This document shows, piece after piece, positions 25,054 through 30,780 of a DNA stretch of 64,000 nt. The DNA is from an uncultured Bordetella sp. Lineage in GTDB: Bacteria; Pseudomonadota; Gammaproteobacteria; Burkholderiales; SG8-41. Both the position numbers and the translations under genes were made by a program. Numbering within the stretch: position 1 is the first letter of the stretch; each line of letters starts with the position of its first letter. The notes below the pieces were generated by a model that was given only the letters and a program-made list of their open reading frames with translations, was not told the DNA's origin and did no database searches. The stretch lies in contig CAZHJU010000001.1 in the NCBI GenBank assembly GCA_964533495.1, forward strand, positions 45,124 to 109,123, written 5' to 3'.

Positions 25054-28000
25054 ATGCCCGACACTCCCGCATCCCAGGCACGCGACGCCATCGTCATCCG
25101 CGGCGCGCGCCAGAACAACCTGAAGAACCTGTCGCTGGACATCCCCCTGAATGAACTGATCGTGGTGACCGGCGTCTCGGGCAGCGGCAAATCCTCGCTG
25201 GTCTTCGACACGCTCTACGCCGAAGGCCAGCGCCGTTACGTCGAGACTTTTTCGCCCTACGCGCGCCAGTTCCTCGACCGCCAGGACCGGCCGCAGGTCG
25301 ACAGCATCGAAGGCATTCCGCCGGCCATCGCCATCGACCAGGTCAATCCGGTGCGCACCTCGCGCTCGACCGTGGGCACGATGACCGAGCTCAACGACCA
25401 CCTGAAGCTGCTGTTCGCGCGCGCGGCCCAGCTGCACTGCCGCGGTTGCGGCGCGAAAGTGGTGCGCGACACACCGCAGACGATTTTCTCTTCGCTGCAG
25501 GCGCGGGCGCGGGAAGCCGGCGATCCGCGGCTGGCGATCGCCTTTCCGGTGCCTGTGCCGGCGAACTTCAGGGCCGACGAGGTCAAGGCGCTGCTGGCCG
25601 CCCAGGGTTACACGCGATTCCTGCAGGAAGAACAGGGCGGTTTCGAAGTGCTGCAGGACCGGTTGCGCATGGGCGGTGCCGAAAGGGCACGGGTGGTCGA
25701 GGCGCTGGAGGCTGCGCTGAAGGTCGGCCAGGGCAGGGTCAACGTGCACCTGCTCGCCGCGGACAACGCCGGCGCCAGCAGCGGCACGGTGTGGCGTTAC
25801 TCCTCCGGACTGCACTGCGCGGAGTGCGACATCCATTACACCGAGCCGAACCCGAGCCTGTTCTCCTTCAACTCGCCGATGGGCGCCTGCGAGACCTGCC
25901 GCGGCTTCGGCCGCGTGATCGGTCTCGATTACGGGCTGGTGGTACCGGATGAATCGAAATCGCTGCGCGATGGCGCGGTGAAGCCCTGGCAGACGCCGTC
26001 GAACAAGGAGTGCCAGGACGACCTGATGAAGTACGCGCGGCTGCGCGGCATTCCGGTCGACAGGCCCTGGCGTGAGCTGTCGGCAAAAGAGAAGCACTGG
26101 GTGCTCGAGGGTGAACCGGAATGGGAAAGCTGGCGCAAGTCCTGGCCCGGCATCTGGTACGGTGTCGGCCGCTTCTTCAAATGGCTGGAAACCAAGGCCT
26201 ACAAGATGCACGTGCGGGTGCTGCTGTCGAAGTACCGCGCCTACACCGAATGCACAGTCTGCGACGGCGCGCGGCTGAAGCCGGAGGCGCTGCTGTGGCG
26301 CCTGGGCTCGAAAGCCAACGCCGATGCCGCCCTCGGCGGACGGCAACGCTTCAGGCCGAAAGGCACCGGTTACGGTGAAGCACAGCTCGCCGCACTGCCG
26401 GGTCTCACCGTGCATGACGTGATGCTGCTGCCGCTGGAACGGACGAAACGGTTGTTCGACGCGCTGGAACTGCCGGCACCGCTCGATGAAGCCACCGACA
26501 TGCTGGTCGGCGAGATCCGCACCCGGCTCGATTACCTGAACCGGGTCGGCCTCGGCTATCTCACGCTCGACCGCCAGTCGCGCACGCTGTCCGGCGGCGA
26601 GGTGCAGCGGATCAACCTGACGACCGCGCTGGGCACTTCGCTGGTCAACACGCTGTTCGTGCTCGACGAACCCTCGATCGGCCTGCATCCGCGCGACATG
26701 GGCCGCGTGATCGGCGTCATGCACCGGCTGCGCGACGCCGGCAACTCGCTGGTGGTGGTGGAGCACGATCCGCAGGTGATGCTCGCCGCCGACCGCCTGC
26801 TCGACATCGGTCCCGGACCCGGTTCGAAAGGCGGCGAGGTCGTCGGCTTCGACACGCCGGCGCAAATCATGCGGCAGGCGGATTCGCTGACCGGACGCTA
26901 CCTGTCCGGCGCGGTGCAGGCGGCGCCGGCGGAAACGCCGCGGCCGCCGGCGAAGAACACGCCGCGGCTGCGGCTGCGCGGCGCCGCCGAGCACAACCTG
27001 AAAAACATCGACGTCGATTTCCCGCTGCAACGCCTGGTCTGCGTCACCGGCGTCTCCGGCTCTGGCAAGTCAACGCTGCTGCAGGACGTGCTCTACGCGG
27101 CGCTGCGCAAGGCGATGGGCAAGCCGACCGAGGCGCCGGGCCGGCACAACGGGCTCTACGGTGTGGACCACATCGGCGATGCGATGTTGGTCGACCAGTC
27201 GTCGATCGGCCGCACCACGCGCTCGAATCCGGCGAGCTACGTCGGCGCCTTCGACGCCATCCGCAGCCGCTTCGCGGCGGCGCCGCTGGCGCAGTCGCGC
27301 GGCTATACCACCGGCACCTTCAGTTTCAATTCCGGCACCGGCCGCTGCCCGACCTGCAGCGGCAACGGCTTCGAGCATGTCGAAATGCAGTTCCTGTCCG
27401 ACGTCTACCTGCGCTGCCCGGACTGCGACGGCCGGCGCTACCGCGCGGAGGTGCTGGAGATCGCCGTCGACGGCCGCTCGATCGCCGACGTGCTCGACAT
27501 GACGGTCGCCGACGCGCTGGCCTTCTTCGGCCATGCGCCGGACATCGCGCGCGCGCTGCAGCCGCTCACCGACGTCGGCCTCGACTACCTGAAGCTGGGC
27601 CAGCCGGTCCCGACGCTGTCCGGCGGCGAGGCGCAGCGGCTGAAGCTGGCCGGTTTCCTCGCCGAGGCCGTCCGGGGCGGACGCAACGCGACCGGCGGCA
27701 GGGGCACGCTGTTCCTGTTCGACGAGCCGACCACGGGCCTGCACTTCGACGACGTGCGCAAGCTGCTCGGCGCCTTCCGCAAACTGCTGGCGGCGGGACA
27801 TTCGCTGATCGTCATCGAACACAATCTCGACGTGATCCGCGCCGCGGACTGGATCATCGACCTCGGCCCCGAAGGGGGCGACGCCGGCGGCACGATCGTC
27901 TGCACCGGCACCCCGGGCAGCGTCGCCGCCCATGAGGCTTCGCATACCGGCAAGGCACTGCGCGACTACGCGGCCGCGCTCGGCACGCCGGCAACGGCGG

Positions 28001-30780: not shown

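Follow-up and report, generated by a model that had tools for sequence, protein, structure and literature searches.

A tandem-fused UvrA from an uncultured Bordetella with complementary asymmetry between its two halves

Tandem UvrA proteins join two UvrA units in one chain, and the gene described here encodes such a protein in an uncultured Bordetella sp. It lies in a stretch of 64,000 nucleotides (nt) of contig CAZHJU010000001.1 (assembly GCA_964533495.1, positions 45,124 to 109,123 of the forward strand), hereafter the window, in which positions are counted. The tandem uvrA is a single open reading frame (ORF) with four ATP-binding cassette (ABC) modules, two in each half, and a short tether rich in Ala, Pro and Thr between the halves. 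It stands between a divergent HD-GYP sensor gene and a small ankyrin-repeat ORF. Its two halves are not equivalent: the features that make a canonical UvrA complete are divided between them in a complementary manner, and most of this division is conserved among the relatives of the protein.

The gene is intact. A preliminary description, made from the letters of the sequence, had reported an uninterrupted ORF of 1908 amino acids (aa), and the frame indeed runs from its ATG through positions 25054-30780 with zero stops. Exact pattern searches of the translation recovered four Walker A motifs GVSGSGKS[ST] (aa 40, 666, 1024 and 1559), four signatures LSGGE[AV]QR (aa 512, 855, 1406 and 1751), four Walker B motifs DEP[ST]xGL and four H-loops EH[DN]. 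The motif AEGQRRY occurs twice (aa 56 and 1040), as does VDQ..IG[RK]T.RS (aa 713 and 1609), and motifs of the NLKN type begin at aa 21, 647, 1005 and 1540. Twelve CxxC pairs stand at the expected positions and form six four-Cys zinc modules, three per half. Each of the four ATPase sites and six zinc modules is intact, and neither half lacks the ABC catalytic residues, as every module carries the consensus motifs. The earlier counts of four Walker A motifs and four signatures, the duplicated zinc-module Cys pairs, and the paired N-terminal and IDQ-type motifs of UvrA are all reproduced by these searches, and the linker that had been placed at about 27970-28035 corresponds to aa 973-994.

Such a chain could be the product of an error, in which two adjacent uvrA-like genes are joined by a missed stop or frameshift during sequencing or assembly. 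We regard the probability of this as negligible. A single ORF with all four motif sets was present in nearly all of 80 related loci that were fetched, the shorter ORFs being contig-end cuts or fragmented metagenome-assembled genomes (MAGs), and hundreds of independent assemblies have this one ORF too, some of them complete genomes of cultured strains. Because the same ORF recurs across related loci, the fusion is not an artefact, and the junction is that of one gene rather than of two neighbours. Additionally, a protein 100% identical to the window protein is already in NCBI.

The anatomy of the halves was derived from a three-way alignment with Escherichia coli UvrA, from structure alignments and from Pfam scans of excised segments, all of which agree (Table 1). 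In half 1, the insertion domain is present, aligning to E. coli residues 287-398 and matching PF17755 with 52 bits over positions 1-65. The UvrB-binding-type domain of this half is trimmed. It has no counterpart of E. coli residues ~176-190, its RKGE strand is replaced by VPANFRADE, and PF17760 matches it over positions 71-106 only, the last third of the model, with 23.4 bits. The trimmed domain is predicted to adopt a compact α/β fold (predicted local distance difference test, pLDDT, ~90), and its helix 211-224 carries R213, E216 and E219. In half 2, the UvrB-binding-type domain is full-length and the insertion domain is deleted: the spacing of the Zn2 CxxC pairs is 38 aa, against 117 in half 1, residues 287-374 of E. 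coli UvrA are unmatched, and the alignment to the solved chain 9gxk skips chain residues 311-404. The protein had been presented earlier as two complete UvrA units. The four ABC modules stand, but completeness does not, for half 1 has its insertion domain and a trimmed UvrB-binding domain, while half 2 has its UvrB-binding domain and no insertion domain. Measured from SHT to AREHNL, the tether has 39 aa in the window; the family ranges over 36-86 aa (median 49). The tether sequence shows no conservation, and inserted repeat elements are found in the tethers of relatives, as expected of a flexible tether.

Table 1. Features of the tandem uvrA locus; positions are those of the window unless a locus is named
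Feature	Position	Strand	Basis or description
Tandem ('dimeric-form') uvrA	25054..30780	+	ATG start, no internal stop, 1908 aa + stop codon
Half 1 (aa 1-972), ABC modules 1 and 2	25054..27969	+	TIGR00630, alignment, AlphaFold2 (AF2)
Half 1 Walker A	25171-25197, 27049-27075	+	Motif search
Half 1 signatures	26587-26610, 27616-27639	+	Motif search
Half 1 trimmed UvrB-binding-type domain (aa 129-258)	25438..25827	+	Between C129/C132 and C255/C258
Half 1 insertion (DNA-binding) domain (aa ~279-403)	25888..26262	+	Between Zn2 C279/C282 and C400/C403
Ala/Pro/Thr-rich inter-half tether (aa 973-994, 22 aa)	27970..28035	+	Translation, alignment
Half 2 (aa 995-1908), ABC modules 3 and 4	28036..30777	+	TIGR00630, alignment, AF2
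Half 2 Walker A	28123-28149, 29728-29754	+	Motif search
Half 2 signatures	29269-29292, 30304-30327	+	Motif search
Half 2 full-length UvrB-binding-type domain (aa 1113-1262)	28390..28839	+	PF17760 positions 1-105, 98.3 bits
Half 2 Zn2 module, insertion domain deleted (aa 1283-1328)	28900..29037	+	38 aa between CxxC pairs
Nested palindromic element, 84 nt, similar to repetitive extragenic palindromes or miniature inverted-repeat transposable elements (REP/MITE-like)	30365..30448		In frame, loop between signature 4 and Walker B 4
Similar palindromic inserts in family members	L027:4741-6113, L075:5462-5547, L011:~7170-7250		Also in proteins P0002, P0005, P0083, P0088, P0119
Intergenic region upstream of both uvrA and the divergent HD-GYP sensor gene	24832..25053		Scans of upstream DNA
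Divergent sensor gene	21910-24831/24900	-	dCache, HAMP, HD_5 (HD-GYP) domains
Ankyrin-repeat ORF, 123 aa	30777-31148	+	N-terminal signal-peptide-like segment; ATG overlaps uvrA stop (ATGA)
EamA ORF	32962-34212	+	ORF list
Major facilitator superfamily (MFS) ORF	33693-35345	+	Overlaps EamA ORF by ~520 nt as listed

Both halves score as UvrA. The equivalog cutoff of TIGR00630 for class I UvrA (729.8 bits) is passed by the whole protein (1980 bits) and by each half (954 bits for half 1 and 1034 for half 2). The stricter model NF001503 gives 2041 bits for the whole protein, above its cutoff of 1147, and 980 and 1069 bits for the halves alone, below it. In a comparison with the sequences of solved structures, class I UvrAs were the best matches of each half (E ~1e-230 to 1e-250), and the class II structures 2vf7 and 7sh1 scored clearly lower. 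The AF2 models have a pLDDT of 81.9 for half 1 and 76.9 for half 2, and the half 1 model is best superposed on Bacillus stearothermophilus UvrA (2r6f/3uwx) with a template modelling (TM) score of 0.75-0.82. By scores and predicted models, both halves are established as bona fide UvrA folds. Identity to E. coli UvrA is 44% for half 1 and 49% for half 2, and the halves align with each other over ~960 aa at 38% identity by BLAST or 43% by MAFFT. The identity between the halves is no higher than that of either half to E. coli UvrA; therefore, the duplication and fusion are old and both copies have diverged. The ratio of nonsynonymous to synonymous substitution rates (dN/dS) against the two closest relatives is 0.12-0.14 for half 1 and ~0.11 for half 2, and the overall range of 0.11-0.18, which includes both UvrB-binding-type domains, indicates purifying selection.

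With canonical class I UvrA (E. coli b4058; TIGR00630/PRK00349; structures 2R6F, 3PIH, 3UWX and 9GXK), each half shares the fold, two ABC modules and three zinc modules, the Walker A and B, signature and H-loop motifs, the dimer and wedge residues of ATP-binding domain I, and the Zn3 hairpin. The window protein differs in that two units are fused in one chain, that half 1's UvrB-binding domain is trimmed and its signature-II arginine set weakened, and that half 2 is without the insertion domain and without the UvrB-contact residues R216/E222. Among its extra loops are one of 24 aa that follows Zn2 in half 1 and, in module 4, one encoded by a palindrome. Two claims of the preliminary description thus hold, namely that one polypeptide contains a pair of UvrA-like units whose four ABC modules are apparently competent, and that it is distinct from canonical UvrA.

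Class II UvrA, represented by Deinococcus radiodurans UvrA2 (2VF7), DrrC and Ecm16 (7SH1), is likewise a paralogue that coexists with canonical UvrA, with a minor or unclear part in UV repair (PMC9328131). These proteins are single-length and lack Zn1 and the entire UvrB-binding domain, whereas both halves of the window protein keep Zn1 (C129/C132 with C255/C258, and C1113/C1116 with C1259/C1262) and, in the AF2 models, a confidently folded domain between the Zn1 Cys pairs. As Zn1 is retained in both, together with a folded domain where canonical UvrA binds UvrB, neither half is class II-like or DrrC-like. The tandem protein might still act without UvrB, by binding distorted or drug-bound DNA and driving intercalator eviction or damage tolerance with ATP in the manner of DrrC and Ecm16, with no recruitment of UvrB or UvrC. 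Class II UvrAs do act without partners of nucleotide excision repair (NER) (PMC9328131), the UvrB-contact residues are lost from half 2 and the domain of half 1 is trimmed, and there are transporter genes (EamA and MFS) 2-3 kb downstream. However, we consider such a role unlikely, since Zn1 and the folded domain are absent from class II by definition, the equivalents of E. coli R216/E222 are reported as invariant in half 1 of 76 sequences (residue counts below), and the matches to class I UvrA in both sequence and fold exceed those to 2vf7 and 7sh1. There is no biosynthetic cluster nearby, the neighbourhood is not conserved, and relatives of the gene have LexA boxes.

The chlamydial double UvrA (NCBIfam NF001885/PRK00635, a model of 1809 aa) is likewise a tandem UvrA of about 1800 aa. 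The window protein scores 1117.8 bits against the NF001885 cutoff of 3054, so it is not the chlamydial equivalog. The two types are probably independent fusion lineages, among many.

The asymmetry of the halves extends to functional residues, for which landmark positions were located in each half and in 76 aligned family members. The ATPase lysines K37 and K646 of E. coli UvrA (PMC3025350) have Lys equivalents in 76/76 sequences in both halves. In the E. coli protein, R216 and E222 belong to the UvrB-interaction surface (PMC3025350). The equivalent of R216 is Arg in 76/76 sequences in half 1, against 29 Ala, 20 Glu, 7 Gln and 5 Arg in half 2. At E219, half 1 has 71 Glu and 5 Asp, and half 2 has 23 Ala, 22 Glu, 11 Gln and 6 Thr; at E222, half 1 has 68 Glu and 8 Asp, and half 2 has 28 Ala, 11 Ser, 8 Glu and 6 Asp. 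Half 2 of the window protein carries A1209 and A1215 at the R216 and E222 equivalents, positions that are unconstrained in the family. The pattern is reversed at the arginines R712, R722, R724 and R730, which bind DNA in E. coli UvrA (PMC3025350). The equivalents of R712 and R724 are conserved in both halves, that of R722 is variable in half 1 and Arg or Lys in half 2, and that of R730 is Thr, Met or Lys in half 1 and Arg in 75/76 sequences in half 2. All four arginines are therefore kept in half 2, and two of the four are lost in half 1. The UvrB-contact residues and a full UvrB-binding domain occur together in neither half, half 1 having only the residues and half 2 only the domain. A simple reading of the Pfam matches, in which half 2 binds UvrB and half 1 does not, was rejected because the conservation of the contact residues shows the opposite pattern. 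The dimer contacts show no such division. R54, Y55, Y62, A63 and G80-P83 of Clostridium thermocellum UvrA are dimer-contact and DNA-wedge residues of ATP-binding domain I (PMC12796330); the equivalents of R54, Y55, Y62, A63 and G80 are invariant in both halves and that of P83 is near-invariant, while those of Q65 and F66 vary in half 2 only.

A wider view was obtained from an exhaustive HMMER search with half 2 as the query against 1.84 billion cluster representatives, clustered at 50% identity. Double-length UvrAs of about 1550-2340 aa, with 4-9 matched stretches, make up most of the best 150 cluster representatives; therefore, tandem UvrAs form many distinct lineages. Two proteins of ~2340 aa (P0130 and P0131) carry about 400 extra residues. 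To type the architectures, 124 tandem representatives (among proteins P0125-P0274) were split with phmmer and each half was aligned to E. coli UvrA with MAFFT; typing by regular expressions was dropped as too brittle for divergent tandems. At least 10 architectures were found. The window type, with a UvrB-binding domain in both halves and an insertion domain in half 1 only, accounts for 43/124 representatives, and tandems with both domains in both halves for 38/124. A double class-II-like form of ~1600 aa, with insertion domains and no UvrB-binding domain in either half, accounts for 22/124, and seven rarer architectures for the remaining 21/124. Within the 43 window-type clusters, the R/E pair is found in half 1 only in 18 and in half 2 only in 3, and basic residues at the four DNA-binding positions are fewer in half 1 than in half 2 in 30 clusters, the reverse holding in 5. 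No such direction is seen in symmetric tandems (12 vs 11 and 10 vs 16). This polarity is a trend rather than a formal test, because the clusters are not phylogenetically independent.

Full-length relatives of the window protein occur in at least 596 species-representative genomes, mainly of Burkholderiales, and the best 80 of these are all full-length, with 59-89% identity over essentially the whole protein. The Burkholderiales include Bordetella, Achromobacter, Castellaniella, Cupriavidus (on chromosome 2, locus L067), Pandoraea, Variovorax, Acidovorax, Rubrivivax and Polaromonas. Other relatives belong to Rhodocyclales, to the Gammaproteobacteria Steroidobacteraceae, Saccharospirillum, Gilvimarinus and Arhodomonas, and to MAGs of Nitrospirota and Verrucomicrobiia. 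The closest among the matches listed are uncultured Burkholderiales or Betaproteobacteria MAGs (84-89% identity). The plasmid collection holds 209 plasmid or megaplasmid records with at least 80% of the query; Ralstonia contributes 134/916 matching records, and the full-length matches listed are Ralstonia solanacearum megaplasmids and secondary replicons of Burkholderia multivorans. The tandem UvrAs on secondary replicons of Burkholderiales are 60-62% identical to the window protein over 99% of its length, with the same domain order and architecture, but lack its palindromic insert and have different neighbours. Orthologues carry the labels 'uvrA', 'uvrA_2' (from Prokka) and 'Excinuclease ABC subunit A, dimeric form' (from RAST), and the window gene is an ordinary member of this tandem UvrA group, which annotation systems already label. 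The preliminary description had spoken of a rare class. This does not hold, given the number of species genomes and the prevalence of double-length proteins in the best 150 clusters. It had also stated that the function is not established, and here the literature that we searched agrees with it: no experimental study of any tandem UvrA was found there, whether under that name or as 'class III' or duplicated UvrA. A 'class III' UvrA is reportedly mentioned in Goosen and Moolenaar (2008) and in Timmins (2009).

The copy number of uvrA bears on whether the covalent dimer has replaced the canonical gene as the sole housekeeping UvrA. Each half exceeds the TIGR00630 equivalog cutoff, there is no second uvrA within the 64-kb window, and the absence of a LexA box in the window would fit constitutive expression. 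Two leaf-nodule symbionts with reduced genomes, Candidatus Burkholderia brachyanthoides and Candidatus Burkholderia crenata (L056 and L081), also keep the tandem gene intact, with all four motif sets. Where whole genomes are annotated, however, the tandem gene is a second copy. The Prokka label 'uvrA_2' on a Ralstonia megaplasmid implies another uvrA in the same genome, and Cupriavidus metallidurans CH34 has uvrA2 (Rmet_4549) on its second chromosome (CHR2) alongside a uvrA on CHR1. Additionally, neither half by itself reaches the stricter cutoff of NF001503. Replacement of the canonical gene is thus improbable.

From this evidence, we lean modestly toward a tandem-fused damage sensor of the NER type, most likely an accessory second UvrA like the uvrA2 genes on secondary replicons of Ralstonia, Cupriavidus and Burkholderia, that acts as a single-chain pseudo-dimer and loads one UvrB. 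Canonical UvrA dimerizes via its ATP-binding-I domains (PMC12796330), and UvrB docks on it at two points, across protomers, through interfaces verified by mutagenesis (PMC7616783, PMC12796330). Half 1 and half 2 would pair head-to-head like the two protomers of the canonical UvrA2 dimer, with a flexible tether of at least 36 aa joining the paired halves, and the resulting single chain with four ATP sites would clamp DNA. The halves have undergone complementary subfunctionalisation. Half 1 retains the insertion domain (damage discrimination) and the invariant helix with R213/E216/E219 (UvrB/Mfd contact), and its signature-II DNA surface is weakened; half 2 has given up the insertion domain and the UvrB-contact residues and retains the full signature-II arginine set. 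The part played by these domains is known from E. coli UvrA, in which deletion of residues 131-248 abolishes both NER and transcription-coupled repair (TCR), and deletion of 290-400 lowers damage discrimination and is less important for TCR (PMC3025350). One side of the pseudo-dimer, made up of the half 1 domain and the half 2 signature-II surface, would then be fully canonical for UvrB loading and the other side degenerate, which predicts that a single UvrB is loaded with a fixed polarity. As judged from residue patterns, intramolecular pairing, one-sided loading and a role in repair appear plausible together. A comparable course is known from heterodimeric and full-length ABC proteins with one degenerate site, in which an obligate homodimer was fused or duplicated and then degenerated asymmetrically. 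Unlike in those proteins, all four ATP sites are consensus here, and the asymmetry lies in partner docking, DNA contact and the insertion domain.

The dimer-contact residues are kept in both halves and the tether is long and flexible, so that either mode of pairing is chemically possible. If pairing were homotypic between two chains (half 1:half 1' and half 2:half 2') or domain-swapped, the result would be a dimer of two tandem chains, carrying eight ATP sites. We find this quite improbable. In a half 1:half 1' pair, the UvrB helices would be good and the signature-II surfaces weakened, and in a half 2:half 2' pair it would be the other way round; complementary degeneration makes sense for heterotypic pairing only. 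Covalent linkage would also strongly favour intramolecular pairing through local concentration.

The one-sided pseudo-dimer may be extended to the whole architecture, although we put this forward only tentatively. Tandems of the window type could be natural, obligately asymmetric sensors, in which the UvrB helix and insertion domain of half 1 together with signature-II of half 2 load one UvrB and no more, in an orientation that is fixed, with the opposite side as a structural counterweight. Different studies disagree on whether the canonical complex is UvrA2B2 or UvrA2B1; the structure matches include an A2B1 complex of canonical UvrA (PDB 9ga3), and current models use two UvrB, one per strand, to locate the damaged strand (PMC12796330). 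If the idea is true, evolution has repeatedly converted a symmetric UvrA2B2 machine into an A'B1 machine, and the tandems are ready-made tools for telling apart what the two protomers and the four ATP sites each do, and what one or two UvrB contribute to strand discrimination. A mutation in a homodimer hits both protomers, while in a natural covalent heterodimer each protomer, ATP site and UvrB dock can be mutated separately. The family is very common and no experimental characterisation of it was found in the literature searched; the complementary, directional degeneration is what the present analysis adds, along with the model of one-sided loading derived from it.

Several observations weigh against one-sided loading. 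The E. coli R216A/E222A double mutant had only a mild effect in one assay (PMC3025350), so these residues are not the entire UvrB interface. The UvrB-binding-type domain of half 2 keeps a conserved RKG strand that is missing from half 1 and is under purifying selection, with a dN/dS of 0.18; UvrB, Mfd or another molecule may still bind to it. Among the 43 window-type clusters, the R/E pair is present in both halves in 8 and in neither in 14, and the cluster counts overstate the significance of the polarity, as the clusters are not independent.

The regulation of the gene differs between lineages. No CTGT-N8-ACAG box with up to one mismatch was found from -300 to +30 of the window tandem uvrA, and no perfect box anywhere in the 64-kb window; the same scan recovered the box of E. 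coli uvrA. The upstream region of the window gene has no sigma-70 consensus match, no Rfam match and no motif common to close relatives by footprinting, and a scan there for sigma-70 promoters and terminators returned nothing. Perfect boxes with AT-rich spacers stand upstream of the orthologues of B. multivorans, two Bordetella MAGs, Achromobacter, two Cupriavidus and Pandoraea, at offsets from the start of -21 (B. multivorans, L002), -78 (L019), -63 (L022), -150 (L023), -55 (L067), -151 (L068) and -144 (L072). These seven relatives compare with about 0.3 expected by chance, an estimate for 79 upstream stretches of 280 nt each. Boxes with one mismatch, again with AT-rich spacers, are found in Bordetella genomosp. 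12 (L020), Marinimicrobium (L064) and Gilvimarinus (L082), and the closest MAG relatives of the window are without a box. The preliminary description had noted the missing box and taken it as evidence against simple SOS control. The absence is correct for the window, but cannot be generalised to the family, since the boxes of the relatives link it to the DNA-damage response in many lineages, with wiring that is not universal. The distribution suggests that SOS control has been gained or lost repeatedly between lineages.

The last ABC module contains an 84-nt nested palindromic element in frame. The complementarity of its 37-nt arms is 86%, and each arm forms a perfect 10-bp hairpin of its own; as RNA, the element has a predicted fold of -80.1 kcal/mol (z = -8.4). 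It encodes ~28 aa that are predicted to be disordered (pLDDT ~30). The relative L006 has an empty site, whereas L003, L005 and the window carry the insert at the identical position, and no further copies are present in the window. Similar in-frame inserts of the 'PSPxGRGE' type occur in other surface loops and in the tether of family members (Table 1), and P0002 has one insert in each of its two equivalent signature-to-Walker-B loops. All 10 of 10 motif matches in the fetched loci lie inside the tandem uvrA, with 0 in ~557 kb of flanks. As the independent events number about four, this is only suggestive of the tandem uvrA being an unusually permissive or preferred target for palindromic inserts. 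The long ORFs antisense to the gene (680, 901 and 303 aa) had zero Pfam matches and are read as the usual antisense ORFs of GC-rich DNA.

None of the genes neighbouring the tandem uvrA is conserved. The divergent, large HD-GYP sensor gene is present as first described; its protein has an HD_5 match at aa 801-959, the best stretch for the generic Pfam HD model (aa 629-718) is sub-threshold alone, and its start is likely ATG 24831 rather than TTG 24900. The sensor gene and the ankyrin ORF are absent beside relatives 84-86% identical, which have pirin alone in common, and the HD-GYP neighbour is incidental. A conserved operon partner was considered and rejected, given these absences and the unrelated contexts in Ralstonia and Burkholderia. 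Since it is absent between uvrA and pirin in the relatives, the ankyrin ORF has the look of a recent insertion rather than of a functional partner. Farther downstream, the MFS domain begins at aa 182 of its ORF; therefore, the real MFS start is probably downstream of the listed one. The bin at 34001-36000 has an unusual AT skew of -0.265.

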